DNA of 64,000 nt, from contig JAGAQJ010000002.1 of assembly GCA_017622845.1 (NCBI GenBank), positions 11,830-75,829 of the forward strand, given 5' to 3'. The position numbers and the translations under genes were made by a program. This DNA comes from Lachnospiraceae bacterium (GTDB lineage: Bacteria; Bacillota; Clostridia; Lachnospirales; Lachnospiraceae). This document shows, piece after piece, positions 1 through 34,695 of this stretch (its first letter is position 1; every line of letters begins with the position of its first letter). Under the pieces are notes generated by a model. The model made no database searches. It was given only the letters and a program-made list of their open reading frames with translations, and was not told the DNA's origin.

Positions 1-1031
1 GACTTCGCGAGGATTTGTTGAAGATCGTGCACGCGGACGCACAGAAATACACTTCTGTTTTGTTTTGCGGCTCCGGTACCATTAATATTGACGTCTGCTT
101 AAATTCCCTGCTTCCGGCGGACAAAAAGATACTGATTGTCAATAACGGGGCTTACAGCACGCGTGCAGTGGAAATCTGCGAATATTACGGACTTCCGCAC
201 ATCAATCTGCAGTTTGCAGTAGACGAGCTTCCGGATTTGGAGCTGGTAGAGAAGACATTAAAAGAAAATCCTGATATTGCATTGGTGCACACGACACATA
301 ATGAAACCGGAACAGGCATCTTAAACCCGATTCGTGAGCTGGGTGCGCTTGCTCACAAGTACGGTGCAGTCTTTACGGTTGATACGACTTCAACCTTGGC
401 AATGCGTCCGATTGACATCGAAAAGGACAATATCGACTTTTGTATGGCATCGGCACAGAAGGGATTGATGGCGATGACAGGATTATCCTTTATCATCGGC
501 AACAGAGCAGTGATTGAGGCTTCAAAGGATTATCCGAAGCGTTCTTATTACTGCAATCTGTATCTGCAGTATCACTTTTTTGAGACAACAGGGGAGATGC
601 ACTTTACGCCTCCGGTACAGACCATCTATGCCGCGATGCAGGCATTAAAGGAATACTTTGCAGAGGGAGAAGAAGCAAAGTGGGCAAGACATACGCGTGT
701 ATTTGAAGCGATTCATAAGGGCTTGGATGAGCTGGGCTTCCGCGACGTGATTAAGCGCGAATGGCAGGCAGGGCTGGTGGTGTCAGCCATATATCCTGAT
801 GATCCGAACTGGGATTTTACAAAAGTGCATGATTATTGCTATGAGAGAGGCTTTACCATCTATCCGGGAAAGATTTCAACGACCAACACCTTCAGGCTGT
901 GCGCACTGGGGGCGATTGACGAGGAGGATATCACGGAATTTTTCAAGGTATTCCGTCAGGCGTTAGAGCAGAATCATATCGCTATTCCGGTGAGGTATTG
1001 TGACGAAAAAGGCACAGCAGGCTGCAGATAG
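1..1031 (+). CDS. phnW: 2-aminoethylphosphonate:pyruvate aminotransferase (class-V aminotransferase), 5'-truncated by the window edge
   Basis: The frame stays open from nt 3 to the stop at 1031. The TTG at 15 is only the first possible start in the track. Class-V aminotransferase blocks are present (VLFCGSGT, NNGAYSTR) with a PLP-lysine context CMASAQKGLMAMTG. It sits immediately upstream of PEP mutase and phosphonopyruvate decarboxylase. Confidence 0.8.
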   Translation, partial: LREDLLKIVHADAQKYTSVLFCGSGTINIDVCLNSLLPADKKILIVNNGAYSTRAVEICEYYGLPHINLQFAVDELPDLELVEKTLKENPDIALVHTTHNETGTGILNPIRELGALAHKYGAVFTVDTTSTLAMRPIDIEKDNIDFCMASAQKGLMAMTGLSFIIGNRAVIEASKDYPKRSYYCNLYLQYHFFETTGEMHFTPPVQTIYAAMQALKEYFAEGEEAKWARHTRVFEAIHKGLDELGFRDVIKREWQAGLVVSAIYPDDPNWDFTKVHDYCYERGFTIYPGKISTTNTFRLCALGAIDEEDITEFFKVFRQALEQNHIAIPVRYCDEKGTAGCR

Positions 1032-1068
1032 TTAAGAGCATCGTCTGAAAATTAATTATAGAGATAGT

Positions 1069-1098
1069 GTAACAGGAAGCCGAAGGCTGAACTGTTAC
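1069..1098 (+). repeat. 30-nt hairpin repeat (module 3)
   Basis: GTAACAGGAAGCCGAAGGCTGAACTGTTAC is identical to 9256-9285. The outer stem is GTAACAG/CTGTTAC and the inner stem is AGCC-GAA-GGCT. It lies between phnW and pepM. Confidence 0.8.
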
Positions 1099-1164
1099 GA
1101 GATTGTCACATAGGATATTGCACAGATTTGATTAGCGGCAAAGCAAAGAGAGGATTCAGGATAC

Positions 1165-2460
1165 ATGAAAAAAGTATATGCATGTTTTTGCACAGATGTG
1201 CTTCATGAAGGGCATCTGAATATTATTCATAAGGCGAAGGCATATGGAGACGTGATTGTGGGCGTTCTGACAGATGAGGCGATGATTCGGTATAACCGTT
1301 TTCCGACCATCAGCTTTGAGGAGAGAATGCAGCTATTTGAGGCGGTTGAGGAGGTCAGTTCGGTTGTCGTGCAAAATGATATTATGTATGACAATATCAT
1401 TGCACAGATTAAGCCGGACTATGTGATTCACGGAGATAACTGGCAGAAGGGACCGGAGGCAGCGATTCGCGCGAATGTAATTGAAGTCTTAAAGCGGGAG
1501 GGCGGAGAATTAATCGAGGTTCCCTATACTTACAATGAAAATGTCAAGCGTGTGGACGAGCGCTTGAAGGAAAAACTGGCAATGCCTGAGTTTCGCAGAA
1601 AGCGGCTGAGACAGTTAATCAAGATGCGTCCGATTGTAAAAACGATTGAGGTACACAGCGGTTTAACAGGTCTGATTGCAGAAAAGACAGTTGTAGAAAA
1701 TGACGGAGAGTTTGATCAGTTTGATGCGATGTGGATTAGCTCTCTGTGCGATTCGACAGCAAAGGGCAAGCCGGATATAGAGCTTGTTGATATGACCTCG
1801 CGCTGCCGGACGATTGATGATGTGATGGAGGTTACCACAAAGCCGATTATTTTTGACGGTGACACGGGCGGATTGACCGAGCACTTTGTCTATCTGGTGC
1901 GTACGCTGGAACGAATGGGTGTGTCAGCGATTATTATTGAAGATAAGACAGGACTCAAGAAAAACTCCCTCTTTGGAACGGAAGTGGAGCAGACGCAGGA
2001 CAGCATCGAGAATTTCAGTGCAAAGATTGCAGCAGGCAAGAAGGTACAGTTGACAGACGACTTTATGATTATAGCAAGAATCGAGAGTCTGATTTTAGAG
2101 CAAGGCATGGACGATGCTTTAACCAGAGCAAGGGCATTCCGCGATGCGGGGGCTGACGGCATTATGATTCACAGCCGCAAGAAAGACCCGGCAGAAATTC
2201 TGGAGTTCTGTGATAAGTTTCGTGCAGAGGACAAGGAAACGCCGATCGTGGTGGTTCCGTCTTCGTTTAACTCTATCACGGAGGCAGAGCTGGCGGAGCA
2301 CGGGGTAAATATCGTAATCTATGCAAATCAGCTGACTAGAAGCGCCTTTCCGGCGATGGAGCAGACTGCAAAGGATATTTTGAAATATCACCGCGCGCAG
2401 GAGGTGGACAGCCGCCTGATGCCGATTAAACAGATTTTGACACTGATTGATGAATTATAA
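1165..2460 (+). CDS. pepM: Bifunctional cytidylyltransferase-like (HxGH, TagD/Fom1-type) domain fused to phosphoenolpyruvate mutase
   Basis: The N-terminal ~130 aa read MKKVYACFCTDVLHEGHLNIIHKAKAYGD, the HxGH nucleotidyltransferase signature. The C-terminal domain carries the PepM-diagnostic EDKxxxxxNS motif (IIIEDKTGLKKNS) within an isocitrate-lyase-superfamily barrel. The architecture matches Fom1 of fosfomycin biosynthesis. Confidence 0.85.
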   Translation: MKKVYACFCTDVLHEGHLNIIHKAKAYGDVIVGVLTDEAMIRYNRFPTISFEERMQLFEAVEEVSSVVVQNDIMYDNIIAQIKPDYVIHGDNWQKGPEAAIRANVIEVLKREGGELIEVPYTYNENVKRVDERLKEKLAMPEFRRKRLRQLIKMRPIVKTIEVHSGLTGLIAEKTVVENDGEFDQFDAMWISSLCDSTAKGKPDIELVDMTSRCRTIDDVMEVTTKPIIFDGDTGGLTEHFVYLVRTLERMGVSAIIIEDKTGLKKNSLFGTEVEQTQDSIENFSAKIAAGKKVQLTDDFMIIARIESLILEQGMDDALTRARAFRDAGADGIMIHSRKKDPAEILEFCDKFRAEDKETPIVVVPSSFNSITEAELAEHGVNIVIYANQLTRSAFPAMEQTAKDILKYHRAQEVDSRLMPIKQILTLIDEL

Positions 2461-2471
2461 GGAGACAATCC

Positions 2472-3170
2472 ATGGAAATAGCAATTTTGATGGCGGCAGG
2501 CTTGGGAACGCGGATGCGTCCGCTTACGGAAACAATACCAAAACCCCTTGTAAAGGTTCACGGGACCCCGATGATTGAGACAGTAATTCAAGGCTTGCTG
2601 AGAAGGAAGGTCAGCAAAATCTATGTTGTTGTGGGCTATAAAAAAGAGCAGTTTGAATACCTTACAAATAAGTATGCAAACCTTGAACTGATTGAAAATA
2701 CGGAATACGAGACAATCAACAATATTTCCTCGATTCATGCGGTGGGAGATGTGTTAGGCAGTGCAGATTGTTTTATCTGTGAAGCGGATTTGTATATCTC
2801 GGATTTGACGATTTTTGATGCAAGGCTTGAGCAGTCCTGCTATTATGGCAAGATGGTAAAGGGATATTCCGACGACTGGGTATTTGATATGGAGGGTGAC
2901 AGGATTGTCCGCGTGGGAAAAGAGGGAACCGACTGCTATAATATGGTTGGCATCTCTTATTTTCAGCAAAAGGACGCGGCGCTTATCAGAGATGCAGTCG
3001 CTTTGGAATATGGAAAAGCGGGTTATGAAGGTCTTTATTGGGACGAAATCGTAGACAAGCAGTTGGACAAGCTGAATCTCACGATATATCCGGTAGGACA
3101 GGAGCAGATTGTTGAGATTGACTCCGTAAAAGAGCTGTGTGCGGTTGACAGCAGCTACATCAACGGATAA
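2472..3170 (+). CDS. LicC/PntC-like nucleotidyltransferase (candidate phosphonate or phosphocholine cytidylyltransferase)
   Basis: The N-terminal signature is AAGLGTRMRPLTETIPKPLV (GxGTRxxPxTxxxPK) and the size is ~230 aa as in LicC. An AAGGAG RBS lies upstream. It is located between pepM and ppd. Confidence 0.75.
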   Translation: MEIAILMAAGLGTRMRPLTETIPKPLVKVHGTPMIETVIQGLLRRKVSKIYVVVGYKKEQFEYLTNKYANLELIENTEYETINNISSIHAVGDVLGSADCFICEADLYISDLTIFDARLEQSCYYGKMVKGYSDDWVFDMEGDRIVRVGKEGTDCYNMVGISYFQQKDAALIRDAVALEYGKAGYEGLYWDEIVDKQLDKLNLTIYPVGQEQIVEIDSVKELCAVDSSYING

Positions 3171-3223
3171 CGTGATAGAGCATTACCCAAAAGGATAAAA
3201 ACGGAAATGGAGTGTAAGAGAAG

Positions 3224-4345
3224 ATGCAGGTTCAGACATTAACAGACATTATCGGTGCTGATTTTTATGCGGGAGTCCCTGATTCCCAGTTAAAGGCATT
3301 GTGCAATTATTTGATGAACACCTACGGAATCGATGCACAGCATCATGTGATAGCGGCGAATGAAGGGAATTGTGCTGCGTTGGCGGCAGGCTATCATCTG
3401 GCGACCGGAAAGGTTCCTGTTGTGTATATGCAGAATTCAGGAGAGGGCAATATTATCAATCCCGTGGCGTCTCTTTTGAATGAGAAGGTATATGCTATTC
3501 CGATGATTTTTATTATCGGATGGCGGGGAGAGCCGGGAATCCATGATGAGCCGCAGCATATTTATCAAGGTGAAGTAACCTTGAAATTGTTAGAGGATAT
3601 GGATATCAAGCCTTTTGTAATCGGAAAGGACACGACAGAGGATGAAGTGCGGACTGCCATGCAGGAATTTGAGCCGTTATTGGCGGCAGGGAAAAATGTT
3701 GCGTTTGTGATTCGCAAGGGTGCGCTTTCTTACGAGGAAAAGGTGGAATACAGCAACAACAATAACATGGTTCGTGAAGAAATTATCAGGCACATTACGG
3801 CAGCTTCCGGAGAAGACCCTGTTGTCTCTACCACAGGAAAGGCAAGCAGAGAGCTTTTTGAAATCAGGGAAGCAAACGGACAGAGCCACCAGTATGATTT
3901 CCTGACAGTAGGCTCGATGGGACACAGCTCCTCCATCGCACTTGGCATCGCAGTCAATAAGCCGGAAACAACAGTATGGTGCATTGACGGGGATGGTGCA
4001 GTTTTGATGCATATGGGAGCAATGGCGGTTATCGGGGCGAACAGTCCTGAGAATCTGGTTCATGTCGTGATTAACAACAGTGCACACGAAACCGTAGGAG
4101 GAATGCCGACGGTTGCAGGAAAGACAGACTTAGTGGCGGTTGCTAAAGCGTGCGGATATCCGAATGCGGTCTGTGTGGACAGCTTTGAGGCGCTTGACAG
4201 CGCATTACAGCAGGCAAAGGAAAGCAGGCAGCTTAGCTTCATTGAGGTGAAATGCTCAATTGGCGCAAGGGATGATTTGGGCAGACCAACCACAACAGCA
4301 CGCGAAAATAAACAGAATTTTATGGAATATTTAAGACGAATTTAG
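3224..4345 (+). CDS. ppd: Phosphonopyruvate decarboxylase (ThDP-dependent)
   Basis: The ThDP-binding motif is GDGAVLMHMGAMAVIGANSPENLVHVVINNSAHE (GDG..NN). The ~370 aa size is typical of Ppd/AepY. It sits in a pepM context. Confidence 0.85.
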   Translation: MQVQTLTDIIGADFYAGVPDSQLKALCNYLMNTYGIDAQHHVIAANEGNCAALAAGYHLATGKVPVVYMQNSGEGNIINPVASLLNEKVYAIPMIFIIGWRGEPGIHDEPQHIYQGEVTLKLLEDMDIKPFVIGKDTTEDEVRTAMQEFEPLLAAGKNVAFVIRKGALSYEEKVEYSNNNNMVREEIIRHITAASGEDPVVSTTGKASRELFEIREANGQSHQYDFLTVGSMGHSSSIALGIAVNKPETTVWCIDGDGAVLMHMGAMAVIGANSPENLVHVVINNSAHETVGGMPTVAGKTDLVAVAKACGYPNAVCVDSFEALDSALQQAKESRQLSFIEVKCSIGARDDLGRPTTTARENKQNFMEYLRRI

Positions 4346-4465
4346 TTGTTATTTGCAGAAATAAGTGATATAATTCCATGGATTTGTAGATGCGGATAAG
4401 GTGGCGCGTTCATACAGGAGGGGTCATGGCGAATCAGAAGCATATGGATAAAGCGAGGGACAACA

Positions 4466-6373
4466 ATGGAAATAGTATATAAGGCTTTGGAATGGGTGAT
4501 GAATGGCTGTTATGCGCTCTGTCATAACTATGGGCTTGCGATTATCCTGTTTACCTTAGCGAGCAAAATCGTACTTTTGCCGGTTTCGGTATGGGTACAG
4601 AAAAATTCTATCAAAATGGTTAAAATGCAGCCGGAAATCAATTTTCTTACCGTAAAATATTATGGGGACAAGGATTCCATTGCAGAGGAACAGGCAAAGA
4701 TTTTTAAGCGGGAGAATTATCACCCGATGGCGTCGATTATTCCGCTGGTGATACAGCTATTGCTTTTGATGGGAGTCATAGAGGTTATCAAGCGTGGAAT
4801 TGCAAATCCTGCAATTGATATGAACTTTTTTGGTATCAACCTCAGCCTTGTGCCTTCCCGGACAGGCATTTCGCTGCTTTGGTCGCCATTGGTGGCAGGC
4901 GTTTCCGCGTGGATTCTCTGCGTTGCACAGAATGCAAGCAATGTTTTGCAGTCCGAGCAGTCAAACTGGAATAAATACGGCATGATGGCATTTTCTGTTG
5001 GATTATCACTGTATCTTGGCTGGTTTGTGTCTGTCGGGGTCGCACTATACTGGGTTGCAAGCAACCTGTTTGCTGTTGCACAGCTTTATCTTCTGAACTG
5101 GGCGATTAATCCCAAGAACTATGTAGATTATGAGGCGCTGGAGGAGAGCAAGAAGGCTCTGGAGGCGCTGGGAAATCTTGGCGGCAGAAAAAGGAGACGC
5201 TTTGGAGACCCTGATACGAAAAGGGAACGGCAGGATTACAAAAAATTCTTTTCCGTTGTCAACAAGCATCTGGTATTTTATTCGGAGGAAAGCGGATTTT
5301 ACAAGTATTATCGTGGAATCATAGAATACCTGTTAGAGAATACGAACCTGGTAATTCATTATATCACAAGCGACCCGGACGACCAGATATTTGAGCTGGC
5401 AAAGGTGCAGGATAAGATACGTCCTTATTATATTGGGGAAAAACGGCTTATTACTTTAATGATGAAAATGGACGCGGACGTTGTCGTGATGACGATGCCG
5501 GATTTGGAGAATTATCATATTAAGAGAAGCTATATCCGCAAGGATATCGAGTATATCTTTATTCCGCACAGCATGGACAGCCTGAATATGACAATGCGCA
5601 AGGGCTCTATGGACCATTATGACACGGTATTTTGCGTCGGAAAGCATCAAAAAGAGGAGATAGAAAAGACAGAGACTGCATACGGTCTTGAGAAAAAGAC
5701 CTTGGTTGACTGGGGATACTGCCTTCTTGACGATATGAGAAGGGAATATCAGGCTCTTTCCCATGAGAAGAGTACGACGAAGAAAATCCTGATTGCGCCT
5801 TCGTGGCAGCAGGACAATATCGTGGATAGCTGTCTGGAAGCGATTCTCGACAATCTGAAGGGAAAAGGCTATCAGGTTACGGTTCGTCCGCATCCCCAGC
5901 ATGTGCGGCATAAGGGCGAATTTATGGAGATGCTCAAGGAGAAGTATGCTTCTGATAAGGACGTGGAAATCCAGACAGACTTTTCCTCAAACAGTACGGT
6001 ATTTGAAGCGGATTTAATGATTACGGACTGGTCGGGAATTGCATATGAGTATGCATATACGACGCAGAAGCCGGTGCTCTTTATAAATACACCGATGAAA
6101 ATTATGAATCCTGAGTATCAGAAAATCGACACAGTACCGATTAATATTTTCCAGCGTGAGGAAATCGGCTGTGCACTCGACCTGAATGAACTGGATAAGC
6201 TCAGCGATAAGGTTGGTGAGCTGCTTGCACATAAGTCAGATTATTATGAGAAAATCGGTGAATTTGTAAAGGAATATACGTATAATCTCGGAACAAGCGG
6301 CGAGGTCGGCGCGAAATACATTATAAGTGCAGTGCAGAGAAAGATTCAGGAAAGAAAAGCACAAGGGAACTGA
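4466..6373 (+). CDS. Fusion protein: N-terminal YidC/Oxa1-type membrane insertase core and C-terminal TagB/TagF-family (CDP-glycerol-type) phosphotransferase
   Basis: Residues 1-215 match the YidC pattern (GLAIILFTLASKIVLLPVSVWVQKNSIKMVKMQPE..., NYHPMASIIPLVIQLLLL, GVALYWVASNLFAVAQ). Residues ~290-635 match TagF blocks (ILIAPSWQ, VRPHPQH, ADLMITDWSGIAYEYAYTTQKPVLFINTP). Confidence 0.7.
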   Translation: MEIVYKALEWVMNGCYALCHNYGLAIILFTLASKIVLLPVSVWVQKNSIKMVKMQPEINFLTVKYYGDKDSIAEEQAKIFKRENYHPMASIIPLVIQLLLLMGVIEVIKRGIANPAIDMNFFGINLSLVPSRTGISLLWSPLVAGVSAWILCVAQNASNVLQSEQSNWNKYGMMAFSVGLSLYLGWFVSVGVALYWVASNLFAVAQLYLLNWAINPKNYVDYEALEESKKALEALGNLGGRKRRRFGDPDTKRERQDYKKFFSVVNKHLVFYSEESGFYKYYRGIIEYLLENTNLVIHYITSDPDDQIFELAKVQDKIRPYYIGEKRLITLMMKMDADVVVMTMPDLENYHIKRSYIRKDIEYIFIPHSMDSLNMTMRKGSMDHYDTVFCVGKHQKEEIEKTETAYGLEKKTLVDWGYCLLDDMRREYQALSHEKSTTKKILIAPSWQQDNIVDSCLEAILDNLKGKGYQVTVRPHPQHVRHKGEFMEMLKEKYASDKDVEIQTDFSSNSTVFEADLMITDWSGIAYEYAYTTQKPVLFINTPMKIMNPEYQKIDTVPINIFQREEIGCALDLNELDKLSDKVGELLAHKSDYYEKIGEFVKEYTYNLGTSGEVGAKYIISAVQRKIQERKAQGN

Positions 6374-6445
6374 CAGGAAGTAATGAGGATACTGAATCGT
6401 TACAATTGCAGAATAAAACAGGTAATAGAAAGGAAGAACCATATT

Positions 6446-6721
6446 ATGAAGAAGGACATATTAAAGAAGAACATATTACGATTAGCATGTGCAGGTTATT
6501 TAGGGGCGGCAGGTATGCTGCTGTTTGGTGTCAATGCACAGGCATACATTGACCCGTCGGTTGCGACTTATGCGATTCAGGCGATTGCCGGTATTGCAAT
6601 TGCAGTTGGTGCAGCTGTTGGAATTTATTTCAGGCGTGCCAAAAAGAAGATTAATGAGAAGCTTGGCGTAGACGAAAACCGCAACAAAGAGGTTGAGTCA
6701 GATGATATTGAGATAAAATAA
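6446..6721 (+). CDS. Small exported/membrane protein (signal peptide, one TM helix, charged tail)
   Basis: I chose the internal ATG at 6446 because an AGGAAG RBS sits at 6431-6436. There is a predicted AXA cleavage site (VNAQA/YIDPS), a hydrophobic stretch AIQAIAGIAIAVGAAVGIYF, then a K/E-rich tail. I do not recognise a family. Confidence 0.45.
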   Translation: MKKDILKKNILRLACAGYLGAAGMLLFGVNAQAYIDPSVATYAIQAIAGIAIAVGAAVGIYFRRAKKKINEKLGVDENRNKEVESDDIEIK

Positions 6722-6735
6722 CAGGCAGCTTTTAT

Positions 6736-6772
6736 GCAATTCAAGTACGCGGGAGCGTACTTGAATTGTTTC
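6736..6772. terminator. Perfect 14-bp hairpin between convergent genes
   Basis: CAATTCAAGTACGC-GGGA-GCGTACTTGAATTG is followed by TTTC on the + strand. It lies between the stop at 6721 (+) and the stop at 6785 (-). The U-tract is present only for the + transcript. Confidence 0.7.
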
Positions 6773-6784
6773 ATGCATACAAGC

Positions 6785-7270
6785 TCATCGCGACGGCATC
6801 ACAGTGCCGATGATATCCTCATATTTTACAGGTCCGATGTCCGGGCAGCGGCTGTCTTTGCTTTCGCTGTAGTTGTCGCCAAGGACAAAATATTCATCTT
6901 CATGAAGCAAAAGCGGAGAAGAAGCGGTGCCTGCATACGAGATTTGGGCGTTTTCGGGCAGTACGGAGGAAGGCTCGTCATTTACATACAGGATATTTTC
7001 CTCGATAGAAACCATATCGTTTGGCTTGGCAACGACACGTTTGATCAGGGTTGTCGACAAGGTATCACTGGAAAAGACAATGACATCGCCGTAGTCAGGC
7101 TGCTTCACATGCTTGTTGATGATTACAAGCTCCAGATTATGATATGTGGGAAGCATGGAATCGCCTTGTATTAATGCAAGCTGAAAATGATATCTTGAGA
7201 GATAGCCTGTCATGAAAAGGATAGAAAGAGCAAGTATCAAATTTTTATGTTTCTGTATTATTTTCTTCAT
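6785..7270 (-). CDS. lepB: Signal peptidase I (S26 family)
   Basis: It has the catalytic Ser box GDSMLPT, the Lys box LIKRVVAKPND, and GDNYSESKDSR. A GGGAGG RBS is present on the minus strand. This is the only minus-strand gene I call in the window. Confidence 0.85.
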   Translation of the reverse strand: MKKIIQKHKNLILALSILFMTGYLSRYHFQLALIQGDSMLPTYHNLELVIINKHVKQPDYGDVIVFSSDTLSTTLIKRVVAKPNDMVSIEENILYVNDEPSSVLPENAQISYAGTASSPLLLHEDEYFVLGDNYSESKDSRCPDIGPVKYEDIIGTVMPSR

Positions 7271-7438
7271 AAAATCCTCCCTTGCAAAGATTATATCACA
7301 CTAAAAAATGAAAGCAATGAGAATGGAAATTTAAGAAAAGCCGGACTAAAATAATGCAGGAATTATCTGAAAGTATGTCTGTATGGAATAGCGGTAATGC
7401 CGCTTAATGTTTTCAGGCGGCAGAGAGGAAGCAATTTG

Positions 7439-9211
7439 ATGAAGCGCAAATGGATATTTTTATATGTCATAATAATGATTGCCTGTTCCCTTCCAATCAT
7501 GAATCATTTTCTGATACGCGGCCACGACATCTATTTTCATCTGATGCGGATAGAAGGTCTTGCGGAGGGGTTAAGGTGCGGACAGTTTCCGGTCAGAATC
7601 CAGCCGGTATGGTATGGAGATTTTGGTTATGCGGTTTCTGTTTTCTACGGTGATTTATTTGTATATTTTGCAGCGATTCTCCGATTGCTTGGCTTTTCCC
7701 TGCAGAATGCCTACAAAGGTTATCTGCTGCTCTGTAATGCGGCGACAGTCTGCATCGCAGGCTATAGCTTCGGGAAAATTTTTAAAAATGCTTATGTGGG
7801 AGTCTTTGGCAGCGCACTTTACAGTCTTGCGGTATACAGGCTGGTAAATCTGTATACACGCGGCGCCCTGGGAGAATATACAGGCATGGCATTTCTGCCT
7901 CTGATTCTCTATGCCTGCACCTTGCTGCTGGATAAGGAGCGAAAGAAAGAAAATCTGAAAAAAGGAAGTTTTCTGCTTGGCATAGGTATGGCGTTTATAC
8001 TGCAAAGCCACATTTTGACGGCAGAGCTTACCGTGCTGATGCTGTGCGGTGTGGTTTTACTGTTTGCTAAGCGCGTTTTTCGGAAGGAAGTGCTTCTAAA
8101 CGGACTGCGTGCAGTTCTGATTGCAGTGGGGCTTAGTTTGTGGTTTCTTGTGCCATTTGGCGATTATATGCTCAACGGGAGCTATCAGATTAATGCGGCG
8201 GAGAGCGAAGAACCGCTGATACAGAGAGTGGGAATTTTTTTCTCGCAGATATTTCCGCTTTTTGACAATGCAGTGGGGGAGAGCCTTGATTTGAGTGCCG
8301 GGCCACAGGGAGATTTTGCACAGGGTGTAGGTCTTGGACTGTTTCTGGCGCTTCCGGCGATTGTTATTTTGACTGCATTTTTGAATAAGAAACTATATCA
8401 GGAATCCGAATGGCGGATTGCAATTGCGGCGGCGCTGTTTGGAGGTGCGGCAGTCTGCTGCAGCACCATCTATTTTCCGTGGGATTTCTTATGCAGGATA
8501 AGCAGTGTATTGAACTATGTGATTGTCAATATTCAATTTCCGTGGAGATTTACAGGAATAGCAGCAGTGTGTCTGACCCTGCTTTGGTGCGCCCTGGTTG
8601 TCCTTATAGGCAGGCACATGGGAAGGAAGCAGGCATTGGCGGCATCGATAACGGTTGTCCTGCTCATGTCCTTGTCAGCAGGTCATTATGTTATCGATTT
8701 GCTGGAGCGGGGACAGCGTATTCAGGTCAGGACACAGTCGGATATGGACAGCTATGTGGCATCGGGTGAGGAGTATTTGCCGTTGGGAACAGAGCCGGAG
8801 GAGCTTACGCCGGAGAGCTTATTGCAGGAGGAGGGTCTGGAGATAACCCAATATCAAAAAAATGGCTCCAATGTGCAGTTTTACTGTCGGAATCATACTG
8901 ATGAAACGAAGATACTGGAGCTTCCCCTGCTGTACTATGATGGATATGAGGCATATGGAGTGTCGGAAACTGGGAAAAAGTCTGATATAAATGTAACAGC
9001 AGGGAATAATAATGCTGTAAGGCTTTTGATAGAACCGGATATGAAGGCAGAGGTCTTTGTGCATTTTAAAGAGCCGTGGTATTGGAGACTTTCGGAAGTC
9101 ATTTCATTGATGTCAGTGCTGCTTTTGGCTTCTGGGGTGCGAAACAGCAGTAATAGTTCAGCCCAGAGGTTTGCACTCGCTGCAAACCTCGTAAGAAAAC
9201 GCAGCGGCTGA
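7439..9211 (+). CDS. Polytopic membrane protein, YfhO-like / GT-C-fold glycosyltransferase candidate
   Basis: The start is taken at the ATG at 7439 (RBS AGAGGAAG). It has more than 10 predicted TM helices. The N-terminal motif is GHDIYFHLMRIEGL...FGYAVSVFYGD, as seen in YfhO-type proteins. A C-terminal ~150 aa soluble part follows. The last ~20 codons (AQRFALAANLVRKRSG) lie inside an intergenic-type repeat. Confidence 0.6.
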   Translation: MKRKWIFLYVIIMIACSLPIMNHFLIRGHDIYFHLMRIEGLAEGLRCGQFPVRIQPVWYGDFGYAVSVFYGDLFVYFAAILRLLGFSLQNAYKGYLLLCNAATVCIAGYSFGKIFKNAYVGVFGSALYSLAVYRLVNLYTRGALGEYTGMAFLPLILYACTLLLDKERKKENLKKGSFLLGIGMAFILQSHILTAELTVLMLCGVVLLFAKRVFRKEVLLNGLRAVLIAVGLSLWFLVPFGDYMLNGSYQINAAESEEPLIQRVGIFFSQIFPLFDNAVGESLDLSAGPQGDFAQGVGLGLFLALPAIVILTAFLNKKLYQESEWRIAIAAALFGGAAVCCSTIYFPWDFLCRISSVLNYVIVNIQFPWRFTGIAAVCLTLLWCALVVLIGRHMGRKQALAASITVVLLMSLSAGHYVIDLLERGQRIQVRTQSDMDSYVASGEEYLPLGTEPEELTPESLLQEEGLEITQYQKNGSNVQFYCRNHTDETKILELPLLYYDGYEAYGVSETGKKSDINVTAGNNNAVRLLIEPDMKAEVFVHFKEPWYWRLSEVISLMSVLLLASGVRNSSNSSAQRFALAANLVRKRSG

Positions 9212-9285
9212 AAGACTCAAGGCACCACGAAGTGGTTCTGCATGCCTTGAGTCCGGTAACAGGAAGCCGAAGGCTGAACTGTTAC
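9154..9285 (+). repeat. Composite modular hairpin repeat (modules 1+2+3)
   Basis: Module 1 (9154-9215) is ~80% identical to 51226-51288. Module 2 (9214-9253) has a perfect 11-bp stem GACTCAAGGCA/TGCCTTGAGTC enclosing CCAC-GAA-GTGG. Module 3 (9256-9285), GTAACAGGAAGCCGAAGGCTGAACTGTTAC, is identical to 1069-1098. Confidence 0.8.
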
Positions 9286-9391
9286 AAACAGCAGGAGAAT
9301 ATCCAAAGGTTGCCGTTGCGAATAACACAGCTTTGTTATACAATAATATATGGGCAGCTGTTGAGCAGGCATACACATTTCCTGTTGCCTG

Positions 9392-10507
9392 GTGAGAAAA
9401 CGGATATTCAGCAGGCGAAAATATATCACCCGGAGTGATTTGGCATGTATTTGTGTACGCACGATGAGGGTACAAAGCAGTTGCATATATGGACTAAAAG
9501 ATGGAAGGATTGGGACAGTGGACAAGAACAGAAAAAAGGGAACCTTGTACATTGTGGTTCCCTGCTACAATGAGGAGGAAGCACTGGAGCTGTCGGCAAA
9601 AACGCTGCTGGACAAGCTTGGTGAAATGCAGAAGCAGGAAGTTGTCTCCAAGGAGAGCCGGATTGTATTTGTCGATGACGGTTCAAAAGACAGAACATGG
9701 GAATTGATACAGCAGTTATATCAGCAAAACGAAAATATTATCGGGCTTCGGTTTGCACATAACAGAGGCCATCAGAATGCAATCCTTGCAGGAATGATGT
9801 ATGCGAAGGACTTTTGCGATTATACGATTACCATAGATGCGGATTTGCAGCAGGATATCAATGCGATGGAGCGTTTTATCGGGGAATATGAGAAGGGCAG
9901 CGAGGTTGTATACGGCGTGAGAAATTCGCGCAGTACGGATGGATTCTTTAAGAAGCTGTCGGCAACGCTGTTTTACAAAACCATGCGGATAATGGGCTGT
10001 GACATCTACGAAAATTCCGCGGACTACAGGCTGATGAGCGCGAAAGCTTTGGAGGCATTGTCTGAATACAGCGAAGTTAATTTATTCCTAAGAGGGATTA
10101 TACCGGATATCGGATTAAAGTCCTCTGTCGTACATTTTGATGTATTTCCGCGCATGCAGGGGCAGTCCAAGTACTCACTCTCAAAGATGCTTACTCTGGC
10201 GGCGGACGGTATCACATCCTTTAGCATCAAGCCAATCAGAATGGTGCTGGCGATGGGAGTACTGGCGCTTCTGGTAGGCTTTGGCATGGTGATACACATT
10301 ATTTATGAGCATTATTTTGGATATACAGTCAGCGGATGGTCTTCCATACTGATGTCCATATGGATATTGGGAGGCGCTGTTTTGATATCGCTTGGCATTA
10401 TCGGAGAATATGTCGGAAGAAATTATCTGGAAACAAAGCGCAGGCCAAGATATTATTTTTGGGAAGTCCTGTCAAGGGACGAGAGGTTCGAGCATCATGA
10501 AGTATGA
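9392..10507 (+). CDS. GtrB/CsbB-like GT2 polyprenyl-phosphate glycosyltransferase (two C-terminal TM helices)
   Basis: GT2 blocks are present: LYIVVPCYNEEEAL, VFVDDGSKDRT and TIDADLQQD (DXD). The C-terminal TM pair is followed by GEYVGRNYLETKRRPRY, typical of GtrB. The true start is probably downstream of 9392, at the ATG at 9464 or the GTG at 9518 (preceded by GGAAGGA). Confidence 0.8.
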   Translation: MRKRIFSRRKYITRSDLACICVRTMRVQSSCIYGLKDGRIGTVDKNRKKGTLYIVVPCYNEEEALELSAKTLLDKLGEMQKQEVVSKESRIVFVDDGSKDRTWELIQQLYQQNENIIGLRFAHNRGHQNAILAGMMYAKDFCDYTITIDADLQQDINAMERFIGEYEKGSEVVYGVRNSRSTDGFFKKLSATLFYKTMRIMGCDIYENSADYRLMSAKALEALSEYSEVNLFLRGIIPDIGLKSSVVHFDVFPRMQGQSKYSLSKMLTLAADGITSFSIKPIRMVLAMGVLALLVGFGMVIHIIYEHYFGYTVSGWSSILMSIWILGGAVLISLGIIGEYVGRNYLETKRRPRYYFWEVLSRDERFEHHEV

Positions 10508-11627
10508 TAAAATTATTATCGGTGCAGGCTTGTATGGGCTGTATGCGGCGTATTACTGTGCAAGCCGCGGCCAGCATGTGCTGGTGCTGGAATGTGAGGA
10601 TGCGCCGTTTAAACGTGCGACCTATATCAATCAGGCACGCGTTCATCAGGGGTATCACTATCCGCGCTCACTTTCAACCGCGATGAAATCGGCGGGATAT
10701 TTTGCGCGGTTTAATGAAGACTATGGATTTTGTATTAACCGCGAATTTCATAAGGTGTATGCGACCTCAAGTGAATATTCGTGGTCTGACGGCGCCCAAT
10801 TTAAAAAATTCTGTGAGGCGGCGCAGATTCCATGCGAGGAGCTTCATCCGGGGAAATTCTTTAAGGAGGGCATGTGCGACGGTGCATTTCTTACCAGAGA
10901 ATACACCTATGACGCCATGATTTTAAGGGATTTTTTTATGGAGAAGCTTGCAGAGTCCGGCAGCAGGGCAGAGCTTCACTTTAGCGCTGATATTGAAAGG
11001 ATTGAAAAGACGCAGGACGCCTACGAGCTGTATGTATCGGAAAATGGCAATCTGATGAAATACAGCACCGGATTTCTGCTGAATGCCGCTTACGCATCTG
11101 CCAATCAGATATTGGATATGCTGGGGTTTGACAAGTTTGGAATCAAATACGAACTGTGTGAGATTATCCTGTGTGATGTCAATGATAAGCTGAGGGAATA
11201 CGGCTTTACCGTGATGGACGGTCCTTTTTTTTCCATTATGCCTTTTGGAAAAACGGGACTGCACTCGCTGACTTCCGTTACCTTTACACCGCATGCTACA
11301 AGCTATGAGGCAGTTCCGCATTTTCCATGTCAGGCGGACAGCGGCGGATACTGCAGCAGACATCATCTTGGCAATTGCAATGACTGCAAGGCGAAGCCGC
11401 AGACAGCGTTTCCGTATATGGCAAATCTTGCACGCAAGTATCTGCGGGAGGAATATCAGTTTTCCTATCAGGGTTCGCTGTTTTCCATGAAGCCTATCCT
11501 GACAAGCTCGGAGATTGATGATTCCAGACCGACCGTGGTACGGACATATTCGGTCAATCCGACCTTCGTAGGCGTGCTGTCGGGAAAAATCAATACAGTG
11601 TATGATTTGGATGATGTGCTGCAATAA
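10497..11627 (+). CDS. FAD-dependent oxidoreductase (DAO/GlpD-like N-terminus)
   Basis: The start at ATG 10497 overlaps the upstream stop by 11 nt. The dinucleotide fold reads YDKIIIGAGLYGLYAAYYCASRGQHVLVLE. No TM helix is predicted. It does not look like UDP-galactopyranose mutase. Confidence 0.7.
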   Translation: MKYDKIIIGAGLYGLYAAYYCASRGQHVLVLECEDAPFKRATYINQARVHQGYHYPRSLSTAMKSAGYFARFNEDYGFCINREFHKVYATSSEYSWSDGAQFKKFCEAAQIPCEELHPGKFFKEGMCDGAFLTREYTYDAMILRDFFMEKLAESGSRAELHFSADIERIEKTQDAYELYVSENGNLMKYSTGFLLNAAYASANQILDMLGFDKFGIKYELCEIILCDVNDKLREYGFTVMDGPFFSIMPFGKTGLHSLTSVTFTPHATSYEAVPHFPCQADSGGYCSRHHLGNCNDCKAKPQTAFPYMANLARKYLREEYQFSYQGSLFSMKPILTSSEIDDSRPTVVRTYSVNPTFVGVLSGKINTVYDLDDVLQ

Positions 11628-11652
11628 CATAATCACATACTGGGGGTAACAC

Positions 11653-12591
11653 ATGACGAACAAAGAAAAAAATTTTATATCTGCCGTGATTTATGTGCAC
11701 AATGATGAGAAGAACATAGGCAGCTTTCTGCAGATAGTCATGAATATACTGGAAGAGCATTTTGAGCATTCGGAGATTATCTGCGTCAACGACTATTCAC
11801 AGGACAGCAGCGTGGAAATTGTGCGCCGCATCAGCAGTGAGGCAGAAACCACTACGGTAACAGTGCTGAATATGAGCTATTTTCACGGCGTAGAGGTTGC
11901 GATGAATGCCGGAATGGACTTAGCCATCGGAGATTTTGTACTGGAGTTTGATTCCTGTGTGCCTGATTTTGCGCCGCAGGAAATTATGAGGGTTTACAAG
12001 AAGGCGCTGGAGGGCTATGATATTGTCAGCGCTTCACCAGACAAAAAACAGCGTTTCACGTCCAATATCTTTTACAGCGTGTTCAACAGATTTACAGATT
12101 TTTCATATAAGCTGTATACAGAGCGTTTCCGCGTGCTCAGCCGCAGAGTCATCAACCGCATCAGCAGCATGAACAAGTCGGTGCCGTACAGAAAAGCAGT
12201 ATATGCAAACTGCGGTCTTAAGACGATGAATCTGAGATATCCGACCGTCGGCGGCTGCCTGGACAAGGAGGATAAGACAGAACGCAAGTACCGGGCGGAT
12301 CTTGCAGTTGACAGTATGATCCTGTTTACAGAGGTGGGATATCGGTTTTCTGTCACGATGACGGTGCTAATGATGCTTGTAGCGATATTTGTAGCGGTGT
12401 ATTCGGCAGTGATCTATCTGTTCAGTACGCCTGTTGCAGGCTGGACAACAACAATATTCTTTATGTCCTTTGCATTTTTTGGACTGTTTGGAATTCTGAC
12501 CATTATCATCAAGTATCTGCAGATATTGGTAGACCTCGTATTCAGGCGCAAAAAATACAGTTTTGAGAGCATCGAAAAGATAACAAAGTAG
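11653..12591 (+). CDS. GtrB-fold GT2-like membrane protein with apparently degenerate catalytic motifs
   Basis: It has a GT2-like N-terminus (ISAVIYVHNDEKNI, ICVNDYSQDSS) and a C-terminal TM pair as in GtrB. The position expected for DXD reads LEFDSCV. Confidence 0.55.
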   Translation: MTNKEKNFISAVIYVHNDEKNIGSFLQIVMNILEEHFEHSEIICVNDYSQDSSVEIVRRISSEAETTTVTVLNMSYFHGVEVAMNAGMDLAIGDFVLEFDSCVPDFAPQEIMRVYKKALEGYDIVSASPDKKQRFTSNIFYSVFNRFTDFSYKLYTERFRVLSRRVINRISSMNKSVPYRKAVYANCGLKTMNLRYPTVGGCLDKEDKTERKYRADLAVDSMILFTEVGYRFSVTMTVLMMLVAIFVAVYSAVIYLFSTPVAGWTTTIFFMSFAFFGLFGILTIIIKYLQILVDLVFRRKKYSFESIEKITK

Positions 12592-13953: not shown

Positions 13954-15678
13954 ATGGGATTTCATAATAGAAATTATATAAGAGCGCTGGTAATGACAGC
14001 AATGGCGTCTGTCGTCCTTGCGATGGGAATCGTTGAGGAGACAAAAAGCAGCAATGCGAAAATCGAACAAATGCAGACAGAGGAGAGCGGCGGTCAGGAG
14101 TTTGGCTTATATGTATGGATGAATCATCAGCAGAAAATAAAGAGCTGGTACAATCAGCAGGATAACAGCTATTATCTTTTTATTCCCGGTGCAATGGAGG
14201 GAAAAAAGCTGAATCTGACGTTTCTTGGGGCGGAATCTCTTTCTATTGATGACAGGAAAGTGGGCAATGGAGACAAGTGCCGGCTGAAAGAGGGACACCA
14301 CATCATTAGAACCGGAGAGCCGCAAGACAGTAAGGCATATGATTTAGAGGTGATGTATACATCGGGAATTGCATCACTGTTTTTGGAAACGGAGTCCGGA
14401 ACGCTTAAATTTATCCATGAATCAAAGGAAAATGAGGAATCGGGCAGCATGTATATCATGGACAGCCGGGGCAGCAAGTATTATGAAGGAACGATTGAGG
14501 ATATTCATTGCCGCGGAAATTCGTCCTATGAGGATACGGACAAGAAATCTTACTCGATTAAGCTGAGCAAAAAGGCTGATTTGTTTGGAATGGGGGAGGA
14601 CAGAAAGTGGATTCTCACAGCGAATGCCTTTGACGATACCCTTCTTAGGAATACGATAGCCTTTGATATTGCCGAGTCGCTTAAGCTTGCATATACGCCT
14701 GAGACTGAGTATGCAGATGTGTGGGCAAACGGTGAATTTATCGGAAATTATCTGTTATCCGAGAAGATAGAGGTTGGGAAAAACAGAGTCAATATTGGGA
14801 ATCTTGAAGATGATACGATGGAGCTTAACGGCAGCCCTGAGCCGGAGACGCTCGAGTTTTTTATGGAACAGCAGGGAAGACTGTTCAGCACAAAAGGTTA
14901 TAAGTATGAGAAAGAGCCGGACAATACAGAAGGAGGGTATTTGCTGGAATTGGAAACAAGCGACCGGTATGGTTTGGAGGCAAGCGGATTTCTGACCTCA
15001 AGAATGCAGCCTGTCGTGTTTGCAAGCCCGAAATATGCTTCTTATGACCAAGTGTCTTATATCGCAAATCGTTATCAGGATTTTGAGGATGCAGTATTTT
15101 CCGAGGATGGCTATAGTCCATATACGGGAGCAGTTTACAGCGATTATATTGACATGGATTCCTTTGCGCGCAAGTACCTGATGGAGGAGCTTACCAAAAA
15201 TCTGGACGCTTCTTTCACAAGCCAGTACCTATATAAGTATGCAGACAGCATCAGCAGGAAGTTTTATGCAGGTCCGTGCTGGGATTATGATAAGTCAATC
15301 GCAGCGTCCGGAATAACGGAGGACGGCATTGACCTGCATGACCCGGTTGGTCTGTATGCAGCTGTTCAGAAGAAGGATTCCGATATATGGTATGCCTTAT
15401 ACCAGCATGAGGATTTCAGAAGGCTGGCTGCCAAAATCTTTTTTGAGGAGCTGGAACCGCAGCTAAGGGCAGATGCCAGAGAGCTGATTGAAGGCTATGC
15501 ATCGCTTATCAGTGCGTCCAACGACTGCAATATGATGCGGTGGAACACCTTCCCGCAGGCTGAGGAGCTGTCGGAGAAAAAAGAGCTGCATCAGGATAAG
15601 GTGGACGAGCTTGCAGAGTTTCTTGACAAACGTCTTGACTTTTTGGAGAGTGAGTGGGGAGATTTGTATAATGAGTAA
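13954..15678 (+). CDS. CotH kinase-family protein with an N-terminal signal anchor
   Basis: The CotH family block is CRGNSSYEDTDKKSYSIKLSKKADLFGMGEDRKWILTANAFDDTLLRNTIAFDIAE...WANGEFIGNYLLSEKIEV. One N-terminal TM helix is predicted (ALVMTAMASVVLAMGIV). Confidence 0.8.
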   Translation: MGFHNRNYIRALVMTAMASVVLAMGIVEETKSSNAKIEQMQTEESGGQEFGLYVWMNHQQKIKSWYNQQDNSYYLFIPGAMEGKKLNLTFLGAESLSIDDRKVGNGDKCRLKEGHHIIRTGEPQDSKAYDLEVMYTSGIASLFLETESGTLKFIHESKENEESGSMYIMDSRGSKYYEGTIEDIHCRGNSSYEDTDKKSYSIKLSKKADLFGMGEDRKWILTANAFDDTLLRNTIAFDIAESLKLAYTPETEYADVWANGEFIGNYLLSEKIEVGKNRVNIGNLEDDTMELNGSPEPETLEFFMEQQGRLFSTKGYKYEKEPDNTEGGYLLELETSDRYGLEASGFLTSRMQPVVFASPKYASYDQVSYIANRYQDFEDAVFSEDGYSPYTGAVYSDYIDMDSFARKYLMEELTKNLDASFTSQYLYKYADSISRKFYAGPCWDYDKSIAASGITEDGIDLHDPVGLYAAVQKKDSDIWYALYQHEDFRRLAAKIFFEELEPQLRADARELIEGYASLISASNDCNMMRWNTFPQAEELSEKKELHQDKVDELAEFLDKRLDFLESEWGDLYNE

Positions 15679-16357
15679 ATACAGACATGAATACAAATAC
15701 ATCTGTTCGGATACACAGCTGGTCCTGCTGAGAAACAGGCTTGAGGGGCTGATGGAATACGATAAATATGCAGGACAGGACGGAACCTATATGATTCGGA
15801 GCCTGTACTTTGACGATTACCTTGACAGCTGCCTCCGGGACAATATCAATGGTACGGACCCCAGAGAGAAATTCAGGCTTCGGCTCTATAACGGCGATGC
15901 CTCCTATATCAGACTGGAGCTGAAAAGGAAGGAACGCGGAAAGACACTCAAATCCTCCTGCAGAATCGACGAGGAATTGTGTGAAAAAATGGTACGGGGA
16001 GTTCCGCTGAAGATGGATGCGGTTGATTCAAAAGTTTACCGCAAGTTTTGTCTGATGCAGCATACCAGGCTGCTGAAGCCCAAGGTGATTGTAGAATATG
16101 ACCGTGTGCCGTATGTCTACAGGGATGGCAATGTCAGAGTCACCTTTGACAGGAATATCAGAAGCGGAGCGGCAATAGAACGCTTTATGGAAAAAAATGT
16201 GATAACAAGACCTGTCATGTCCTGTGGTCAGCATGTTTTAGAAGTGAAATTTGACGAGCTGATTCCGGATTTTATATATTCTGCCATACAGATTGAAAAG
16301 CTGCAGCAGACAACATACTCCAAATACTATATATGCCGGAAATACAGTTTAGGATAG
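15671..16357 (+). CDS. VTC-domain (polyphosphate-polymerase-like, triphosphate-tunnel) protein
   Basis: The start ATG at 15671 overlaps the cotH stop (ATGAGTAA). VTC blocks are present: YRHEYKY, YMIRSLYFDD, REKFRLRLY, IRLELKRKERGKTLK. No TM helix is predicted. Confidence 0.75.
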   Translation: MSKYRHEYKYICSDTQLVLLRNRLEGLMEYDKYAGQDGTYMIRSLYFDDYLDSCLRDNINGTDPREKFRLRLYNGDASYIRLELKRKERGKTLKSSCRIDEELCEKMVRGVPLKMDAVDSKVYRKFCLMQHTRLLKPKVIVEYDRVPYVYRDGNVRVTFDRNIRSGAAIERFMEKNVITRPVMSCGQHVLEVKFDELIPDFIYSAIQIEKLQQTTYSKYYICRKYSLG

Positions 16358-16383
16358 GAAGTACAGTTCAGGAGGAAATCAAT

Positions 16384-17058
16384 ATGAGTTTTAAGGACGT
16401 GTTAAAAAAATCATTTGTGAATAATTTCACAACAGCCGATATGACTTTTACAGAGGTGCTGTTGATACTGGCAATTACACTGCTTTTTGCGTTGTATATC
16501 TTTTTCATTTACAGGATATTAACAAGGAAAAATTTCTACAATAAAAACTTTAATATCTCGCTTGCAGCGATTGCAATGATTACTGCTGCCGTAATTATTA
16601 CGATTCAGTCAAGCATTGTCGTTTCGCTTGGTATGGTAGGCGCGCTGTCTATTGTGAGATTTCGGACGGCAGTGAAGGACCCGCTTGACCTTGTATTTAT
16701 GTTCTGGGCGTTGGCAGTCGGCATTATATGCGGTGTCGGCCTGTTTTACATTGCAGGAATACTGTCAATTCTTGTGACGATAACGATATTCATACTGGAT
16801 AAGCTTCCGGCGGCACAGGCGCCTATGATTCTGATGGTGCAGGCTGTGTACTGTGATATGGAGGGCGATATCAGCAGCGTGGTATCGGAGTTTACAAAGT
16901 ATTACAAGGTGAAATCAAGAAATATTACACCGGAGAGGACCAGCATCGTGATGGAGCTTCGGGTGAAAGACGGAGGAAGCCTCGTACAGAAATTAAGCGG
17001 CATGGACGGAGTGGAATATGTATCCATCATTGACCATGACGGGGAAGTGACATACTGA
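16384..17058 (+). CDS. DUF4956-family membrane protein
   Basis: The start ATG at 16384 follows an AGGAGGA RBS. The signature is LGMVGALSIVRFRTAVKDPLDLVFMFWALAVGIICGVG. It has 4-5 TM helices and a ~70 aa soluble C-terminus. Confidence 0.7.
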   Translation: MSFKDVLKKSFVNNFTTADMTFTEVLLILAITLLFALYIFFIYRILTRKNFYNKNFNISLAAIAMITAAVIITIQSSIVVSLGMVGALSIVRFRTAVKDPLDLVFMFWALAVGIICGVGLFYIAGILSILVTITIFILDKLPAAQAPMILMVQAVYCDMEGDISSVVSEFTKYYKVKSRNITPERTSIVMELRVKDGGSLVQKLSGMDGVEYVSIIDHDGEVTY

Positions 17059-34536: not shown

Positions 34537-34695
34537 TAGAAATCATTCCAATACAGGGAACGTCAATGCCGTTAAGGCAGGGGCGTTCCCGCTTTGGCGT
34601 AAAATAATAAACGAATAACAAAATACAGACAGCGGCTGTCCGGTATGACGATTCTCAGAACAAAAGAACCCGGATAGCCGGGATGGAGGGTGAAA

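Follow-up and report, generated by a model that had tools for sequence, protein, structure and literature searches.

A predicted CMP-2-aminoethylphosphonate supply cassette in a wall-glycopolymer locus of a Lachnospiraceae bacterium, with a candidate LicD-independent transferase

Introduction

Which head group would decorate the wall glycopolymer of a Lachnospiraceae bacterium that carries phosphonate genes beside its wall genes, and which enzymes would make, activate and transfer it? This question is raised by a 64-kb stretch of DNA (contig JAGAQJ010000002.1, assembly GCA_017622845.1), hereafter the window, whose positions 1-4345 hold four genes for the synthesis and activation of 2-aminoethylphosphonate (AEP), two unrelated cytidylyltransferase modules among them. 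We found that these genes, all on the + strand, are likely to form a self-contained, horizontally mobile cassette of the Pnt kind which supplies CMP-AEP, and that this would then be put on a wall glycopolymer. The gene directly downstream, encoding a YidC-TagF fusion, is put forward more tentatively as a candidate for the transferase.

Results

Four adjacent genes are predicted to supply CMP-AEP

The first gene of the cassette (positions 3-1031, + strand) encodes a class V AEP transaminase (AEPT) of the AepZ/PhnW type, which matched TIGR03301 at 421.7 bits (cut-off 360.8) and PF00266 (Aminotran_5). Its 5' end is truncated at the window edge, with about 41 codons lying outside; the complete gene, encoding 384 amino acids, was found on L081, a metagenome contig that is 100% identical to window positions 1-12460 and supplies 8.8 kb further upstream. 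The second gene (1165-2460, +; PF01467 and TIGR02320) encodes a 431-amino-acid fusion of a Fom1-type HxGH cytidylyltransferase (CyTase) domain (1165-1600, +; PF01467, E=6e-13, residues 11-95) with a phosphoenolpyruvate (PEP) mutase (Ppm) domain (1600-2460, +). The Ppm domain scored 408.8 bits against TIGR02320 (cut-off 319.55), matched the PDB entries 5unc and 1m1b at E~1e-38 to 1e-40, and contains the signature EDKTGLKKNS at nt 1939-1968 (residues 259-268). The third gene (2472-3170, +) sits between ppm and ppd, starting 11 nt past the ppm stop codon, and encodes a 232-amino-acid LicC-fold protein of the PntC type with matches to PF00483 (NTP_transferase) and PF12804 (MobA-like). The fourth gene (3224-4345, +) encodes phosphonopyruvate decarboxylase (Ppd), a thiamine diphosphate enzyme, identified by TIGR03297 (466.6 bits, cut-off 312.5), PF02775, PF02776 and a GDG-x24-NN motif at nt 3989-4078.

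The initial annotation had named PepM, Ppd and a class V aminotransferase from the letters of the sequence; all three scored above the curated cut-offs, and the named motifs were found. The pathway it had drawn from PEP through phosphonopyruvate and phosphonoacetaldehyde to AEP is complete, with equivalog-level matches for Ppm, Ppd and AEPT, all encoded on one strand inside 4.3 kb. Specifically, the Ppm domain would turn PEP into phosphonopyruvate, which Ppd would decarboxylate irreversibly to phosphonoacetaldehyde, and the class V transaminase would then yield AEP. Finally, the LicC-fold enzyme, a putative PntC of the A. rimae/O. uli subfamily, would join AEP and CTP to give CMP-AEP. These four predicted steps draw on equivalog-level family membership and on the published biochemistry of the homologue Ari-PntC. 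AEP catabolism of the PhnW/PhnX kind was ruled out, as no phosphonatase is present while Ppm and Ppd are.

The LicC-fold enzyme is closest to A. rimae and O. uli PntC

To assign a substrate to the LicC-fold protein, we compared it with characterized enzymes of the same fold. Its GxG(T/S)Rx8PK loop, here of the form GLGTRx8PK, is GLGTRMRPLTETIPK at nt 2499-2543. The protein matched S. pneumoniae LicC (PDB 1jyk) over its full length (residues 4-222, E=3e-29), and T. denticola PntC (6pd1) over the N-terminal ~110 residues only (E=4e-11). In its C-terminal, substrate-side half, identity is 42-46% to the A. rimae and O. uli enzymes (Ari/Oul-PntC) and 25% to S. pneumoniae and H. influenzae LicC, values that are approximate, being read from text obtained by optical character recognition of Supplementary Fig. 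15 of Rice et al. 2019. The pattern 'ENxEY..NNISSI....FICEAD' is common to the window protein and Ari/Oul-PntC, whereas LicC has 'VIDAD'; the ICEAD motif is encoded at nt 2775-2789, and DDWxFD and VGKxG...MVGISxF are likewise found in the window protein as in Ari/Oul-PntC. The Glu of ICEAD aligns with E104 of the T. denticola enzyme (Tde-PntC), one of two residues discussed as narrowing the pocket (Rice et al. 2019, Nat Commun 10:3698, PMC6697681).

CMP-AEP formation and AEP preference have been measured for the homologues Ari1348 and Tde1415, and Ari-PntC was shown by experiment to prefer AEP over phosphocholine 440-fold (PMC6697681). We found no choline kinase (PF01633), LicB or LicD among the genes of the 64-kb window and the 8.8 kb upstream. 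Taken together, the identity of the C-terminal half, the ICEAD motif, the AEP preference of Ari-PntC and the lack of genes for choline kinase, LicB and LicD point to a PntC-type CTP:AEP cytidylyltransferase. The separate enzyme of PntC fold noted in the initial annotation is thus present, and is closest to the A. rimae/O. uli form, with a weak match to that of T. denticola. Tde1415, a PntC-AEPT fusion (6pd1/6pd2), shares with it the LicC fold, the GxGTRx8PK loop and a Glu at the E104 position. It differs in that PntC and AEPT are separate genes in the window, and in that the second determinant is an Asp (YWD), as in LicC and Ari-PntC, and not a Glu.

The cassette recurs among gut anaerobes

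A relative of the fused Ppm is encoded in 553 of the species-representative genomes that we scanned. We compared the 80 best-matching loci (L001-L080), whose fused proteins are 77-92% identical to that of the window, and the Ppm domains alone 81-98%. AEPT, CyTase-Ppm, PntC and Ppd form an unbroken run in about 46 of the 80 loci, which come from Lachnospiraceae, Oscillospiraceae, Christensenellales, Treponema, Cloacibacillus and Gastranaerophilales metagenome-assembled genomes (MAGs). The gene order of the window recurs in ten of them (L001, L004, L010, L021-L023, L025, L047, L048 and L071). This distribution suggests that the cassette may have spread horizontally among gut anaerobes. In the nearest genome, that of Lachnospira intestinalis (L001), the Ppm is 92% identical and the same four genes lie between a gdh-like gene and dnaX-ybaB-recR. 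This island between housekeeping genes indicates that the cassette is a mobile module for which the setting of a glycan locus is not obligatory. MAGs carrying CyTase-Ppm are assigned to Bacillota, Spirochaetota, Synergistota, Melainabacteria and Bacteroidota, the last possibly mis-binned.

The presence of two cytidylyltransferases had been presented as if it were rare, and this did not hold. Rice et al. 2019 (PMC6697681) reported a fusion to PF01467 for 23.6% of Ppm enzymes and showed clusters in which a fused cytidylyltransferase occurs along with a separate one; Li & Horsman 2022 (PMC8942020) is the second published source bearing on this architecture. Our literature searches on the PF01467 domain in AEP clusters and on CMP-AEP transferases returned nothing later besides these two. 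Among our loci with AEPT and at least 6 kb of sequence on either side (the full-flank AEPT-positive loci, n=33), 29 have both nucleotidyltransferase (NTase) modules. The two-module layout holds up, yet it has been published before and occurs commonly in gut anaerobes.

A subgroup of 13-14 loci from the same clade has CyTase-Ppm and Ppd and lacks AEPT and PntC (L002, L006-L008, L015, L031, L034, L037, L039, L042, L052, L054, L059 and L069). Upstream of ppm these loci carry a conserved set of four genes, encoding a metallophosphoesterase, an NAD epimerase/dehydratase, a DUF6564 protein and a saccharopine-dehydrogenase-like protein; the N-terminus of DUF6564 resembles the GxG loop of NTases. The subgroup probably makes a different, uncharacterised head group derived from phosphonoacetaldehyde.

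The cytidylyltransferase domain fused to Ppm has a clade-specific third motif

We then examined the HxGH domain at the N-terminus of Ppm. It matched the CyTase domain of Fom1 (PDB 5x3d) at E=5.5e-31, with about 50% identity over 133 residues (residues 4-136), and matched ECT and TagD far more weakly. The HEGH motif is encoded at nt 1204-1215 (residues 14-17), and H14, G16 and H17 are invariant in the 75 homologues over which conservation was scored. The fusion of such a domain to PepM in the manner of Fom1, as first proposed, was therefore borne out, and so was the suspicion that its third motif had diverged. In TagD this motif reads RTEGISTT. The window has no motif of the RTxGISTT type; PYTYNENVKR (nt 1522-1551) aligns instead with PYTPGISSTR of Fom1.

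The variant is kept across the 75 homologues, with Y121 and T122 invariant and Y123, N124, E125, V127 and K128 nearly so. In a wider search with the domain (90 alignable representatives, 35-47% identity), most sequences retain PYTxG(I/V)SST, and the clade of the window has PYTYNExV(K/R). A further class, PY(S/A)xDxKY, occurs in triple fusions of a LicC-like domain, an HxGH CyTase and Ppm (P0141, P0228, P0191 and P0247). Both motif classes without GISST are those that co-occur with a LicC-type enzyme, which hints at a shifted role of the CyTase. Judged from these alignments, the motif replacement is a clade-level selected feature and not decay. The conserved PYTYNExVK indicates that the domain is under selection, though it may differ in its job from Fom1.

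The resemblance to Fom1 of Streptomyces wedmorensis extends to the two-domain CyTase-Ppm architecture, the HxGH motif and the PYT that starts the third motif. Unlike Fom1, the window enzyme stands in a context of AEP tailoring and not of fosfomycin synthesis. The substrate of Fom1 is hydroxyethylphosphonate (HEP), and no HEP-forming reductase is present in the window locus; the Fom3, Fom4 and FomD families are not among the window or upstream genes.

CyTase fusion is a hallmark of this whole Ppm clade, irrespective of the downstream genes. We found the domain equally conserved in three settings: with PntC, with AEPT and no PntC, and with neither. The second setting is represented by four of the 33 full-flank AEPT-positive loci, which have no PntC within 10 kb (L043, L049, L053 and L061) and which argue against a simple inactivation of the CyTase. 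Conservation in all three settings points either to a role linked to Ppm itself or to a broad substrate range among 2-substituted ethylphosphonates. Most likely, in our view, the fused CyTase would cytidylylate a 2-substituted ethylphosphonate in a second or auxiliary reaction; its role may also have changed or be non-catalytic. We ruled out the domain as a source of CDP-glycerol for the TagF-like domain described below, as CyTase-Ppm is present in 80 of the 80 Ppm loci and the TagF-like fusion in 3 of the 80.

The cassette lies within a wall-glycopolymer locus

Downstream of the cassette, the window is one long wall-polymer locus. It includes genes for dTDP-rhamnose synthesis (rmlB, 33460-34536; rmlA, 34690-35565; rmlC, 36922-37488) and for an LCP (LytR-CpsA-Psr) ligase, which joins wall glycopolymer to peptidoglycan (55238-56758, +; PF03816, 109.8 bits). 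GtrB/PgfS-like genes of glycosyltransferase family 2 (GT2) stand together with a gene for a large polytopic membrane protein, and the locus also encodes several large GT2 proteins and GtrA. Two initiating transferases of the Bac_transf family, WecG/TagA and a Wzm/Wzt ABC exporter with a Wzt_C domain are encoded there as well. On the other side, the 8.8 kb of L081 upstream encode an LtaS-like sulfatase-family protein, a split ADP-heptose pathway, a GT9 heptosyltransferase, DUF6311 and Glucos_trans_II.

Glycan genes thus stand on both sides of the cassette, in agreement with the wall-glycopolymer and LCP-ligase context described in the initial annotation. Its preference for wall decoration over an antibiotic also stood when the upstream sequence was checked, which revealed ADP-heptose and glycosyltransferase genes, and no antibiotic-type genes or LicD. 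The cassette most likely serves to decorate a cell-wall polysaccharide. The activated phosphonate would be moved to the wall glycopolymer of the surrounding locus, with its rhamnose genes, ABC exporter and LCP ligase. In this respect the system recalls LicC/LicD of S. pneumoniae, where a LicC-fold enzyme activates a small zwitterionic phosphorus head group with CMP before it is placed onto a wall polymer. It differs in that the predicted head group of the window is made de novo with a carbon-phosphorus (C-P) bond, in that LicA, LicB and LicD are missing, and in that the NTase has PntC signatures.

Further features of the locus were recorded. The ADP-heptose set (L081 positions 1-8700) comprises a PfkB kinase, a 163-amino-acid HxGH-type adenylyltransferase, an epimerase, SIS/GmhA and HAD/GmhB; its presence in a Gram-positive Lachnospiraceae suggests heptose in the wall polymer. 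A trio of CotH kinase, VTC-domain protein and DUF4956 lies inside the glycan locus at 13954-17058, and a 1082-amino-acid GH78 alpha-L-rhamnosidase is encoded at 17279-20527, within the same locus that makes dTDP-rhamnose. Two GH25 muramidases are found at 29600-32983 and 35549-36862. The larger combines three Big_2 domains with a choline-binding-type repeat, a possible means of recognising a zwitterionic decoration of the wall.

A YidC-TagF fusion is a candidate for the transferase

The supply of CMP-AEP leaves the question of its transfer. LicD (PF04991; representative E=3.5e-48) flanks the cassette in 23 of the 80 related loci. The initial annotation saw no LicD-type transferase in the window, and we agree: tblastn with 32 LicD proteins from related loci gave a best E of ~0.1 in the window, and the gene list of the 8.8 kb upstream also has no LicD.

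The first gene after ppd (4466-6373, +) encodes a fusion of a YidC-like domain (residues 22-211; PF02096, 104 bits) with a TagF-like domain (residues 265-602; PF04464, 46.7 bits, gathering threshold 22.1). Next to it, a gene at 6446-6721 (+) encodes a small single-pass membrane protein with an AYIDPS...AIAG motif and no Pfam match. We collected 80 gut-metagenome loci with fusions 61-85% identical to that of the window, which are not independent of one another and of which 37 are full-flank. Homologues of the small membrane protein lie beside the fusion in L003, in L027 and in most of these 80 loci (59-88% identity). The fusion family, a very large one of Lachnospiraceae, has at least 7,561 database matches; the best 120 all have both domains and, where named, are called only 'membrane protein insertase YidC'.

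The AlphaFold 2 model of the fusion has a mean confidence (pLDDT) of 79.5. Its best Foldseek matches are the TagF-like capsule polymerase 8qoy and TagF 3l7k (E~1e-10), and YidC 3wo7 for the N-terminal part. When the sequence of the entire fusion was searched against the PDB, only YidC was returned, with TarL at E=0.28; a search with a profile of the C-terminal domain gave no match at E<=1, and the catalytic residues could not be mapped onto TagF by sequence. H368, RPHPQ (474-478, with H476) and TDWSGIAYEY (520-529) are invariant in homologues down to 48% identity; H368 and H476 are candidate counterparts of the catalytic pair H444 and H584 of TagF. The Arg of the YidC groove is replaced by an invariant Lys34. 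Thus, TagF/TarF/TarL and TagF-like polymerases (3l7k, 8qoy, 8a0c) are the best structural matches to the C-terminal domain and resemble it in an RPHP-type His and TDxS motifs. They differ in that the window domain is fused to a YidC/Oxa1-type five-helix membrane domain, and in that neighbours of this family make head groups of the amino-alcohol type.

Furthermore, we examined the neighbours of the fusion. It adjoins the AEP cassette in the window, L003, L027 and L047, and AEPT on L157; in L003, L027 and L047 it precedes AEPT, and both the gene order and the class of PntC differ from those of the window. In the full-flank Ppm set, no locus has both LicD (10 loci) and the fusion (3 loci). Companions in the 80 fusion loci are the small membrane protein, LtaS-like proteins (64/80) and, in many, a signal peptidase. 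These loci also carry LicC-type NTases fused to choline/ethanolamine kinase (PF01633) or to a CobD-like threonine-phosphate decarboxylase fold (TIGR01140, 177 bits, below the cut-off), and a LicC-type NTase lies within three genes of the fusion in 19 of the 37 full-flank loci. TagD was found in 0/80 and LicD in at most 2/80, both weak matches. Genes for CDP-glycerol or CDP-ribitol synthesis were not found near the fusion; the sole HxGH match in the window is the Ppm-fused domain.

The simplest reading of these neighbourhoods is that the fusion would act as a head-group phosphotransferase and take its donor from whichever activation module lies beside it, the AEP cassette being one of them. We tentatively propose, at somewhat less than even confidence, that the fusion and its small membrane partner form an unrecognised, LicD-independent transferase of zwitterionic phospho- or phosphono-head groups to a lipid-linked wall polymer, with CMP-AEP as donor here and CDP-choline-like or CDP-amino-alcohol donors in sister Lachnospiraceae. 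As suggested by gene neighbourhoods only, AEP would be transferred from CMP-AEP at the cytoplasmic membrane face, with CMP leaving. Such chemistry would equal that of TagF with its donor, since CMP-AEP and CDP-glycerol both release CMP upon attack at the distal phosphorus. The hydrophilic groove of the YidC type, with Lys34, possibly holds or translocates the lipid-linked acceptor.

Discussion

The cassette closely resembles the Pnt clusters of A. rimae and O. uli, which also combine AEPT and Ppd with a nucleotidyltransferase-Ppm fusion, a separate LicC-like PntC at a distance of one or two genes, and glycan neighbours. It differs from them in its host, a member of the Lachnospiraceae and not of the Coriobacteriia, in having no LicD-like or lic genes nearby, and in the YidC-TagF fusion found where a transferase is expected; the locus of the window, moreover, is known from sequence alone.

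Some observations weigh against the supply of CMP-AEP to the wall as we propose it. The C-P compound is only predicted in this organism, and no transferase or glycan gene lies within 10 kb of the L001 cassette. The four AEPT-positive loci without PntC suggest that the fused CyTase can activate AEP alone, which would blur how the two modules share the work. If roles were reversed or doubled, the fused HxGH CyTase would activate the phosphonate (AEP or HEP) and the LicC-fold enzyme another compound, such as phosphocholine or phosphoethanolamine, giving two head groups. Besides those four loci, this explanation can call on the identity of the CyTase to the Fom1 domain, which cytidylylates HEP (PMC6697681), on the full-length alignment of the LicC-fold protein with S. 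pneumoniae LicC, and on the choline-binding repeat of the GH25 lysin. We consider it improbable, given that the LicC-fold gene is tucked between ppm and ppd, that it encodes ICEAD and not the VIDAD of LicC, that its substrate-side half is far nearer to the AEP-specific Ari-PntC, that choline kinase, LicB and LicD are missing from the window and the 8.8 kb upstream, and that the fused domain has lost its GISST motif. Less probable still, and in our view hardly credible, is a diffusible small-molecule phosphonate of the antibiotic type in place of a surface decoration. Ppm, Ppd and a Fom1-like CyTase do also open fosfomycin biosynthesis (PMC6697681), but no radical-SAM methyltransferase, epoxidase, ATP-grasp, nonribosomal peptide synthetase or FomD-like hydrolase is found nearby, glycan genes occupy both flanks, and AEPT together with PntC is the signature of tailoring clusters. 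The reading as a CMP-AEP supply cassette for the wall remains the one we prefer.

For the fusion the balance is finer. Its closest relatives, in the 80 metagenome loci, are mostly without a Ppm cassette, which ruled out the fusion as specific to phosphonate clusters, and 12 of the 37 full-flank loci have no nearby NTase; given these two observations, the fusion may be a general wall enzyme that stands beside the cassette by chance. PF04464, the CDP-glycerol glycerophosphotransferase family, is moreover defined by CDP-glycerol/ribitol enzymes. The fusion could accordingly be an ordinary teichoic-acid-type enzyme using CDP-glycerol or CDP-ribitol, with CMP-AEP consumed by a transferase elsewhere in the genome or for a phosphonolipid. 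The free-standing island in L001 would fit such a separation, as would a promoter-like site at 4346-4374, between ppd and the fusion gene, although the scan of positions 1-9500 from which this possible promoter comes did no better than shuffled sequences for promoters and terminators (15 vs 16.5 expected; 9 vs 6.9). We find this explanation rather unlikely, as a TagD-like gene is present in none of the 80 fusion loci and in the window only as the Ppm-fused domain. Furthermore, the fusion lies directly beside the cassette in four or five lineages with varied gene orders, where chance would give ~0.1% per locus for a gene of one or two copies, and it is mutually exclusive with LicD in the full-flank set. 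No CDP-alcohol phosphatidyltransferase was seen in the window, which speaks against the phosphonolipid route. A head-group phosphotransferase, in our tentative proposal, remains the reading of the fusion that we favour.

In this study, we describe one more Lachnospiraceae example of the published class of AEP tailoring systems, whose cassette occurs very widely in gut anaerobes and is highly conserved among them. Its prevalence bears on host-microbe surface chemistry, yet is unsurprising. The comparative data make two questions more tractable: the role of the CyTase alongside PntC, and phosphonate transfer without LicD. For the latter, the fusion is a concrete, testable transferase candidate where LicD is absent. 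If our proposal is true, the fusion would account for the missing 'PntD' step in the tailoring with phosphonates in many gut Firmicutes and, as a corollary, the Ppm-fused HxGH domain of PntC-carrying clades, having lost GISST, would have moved away from Fom1-like cytidylylation.

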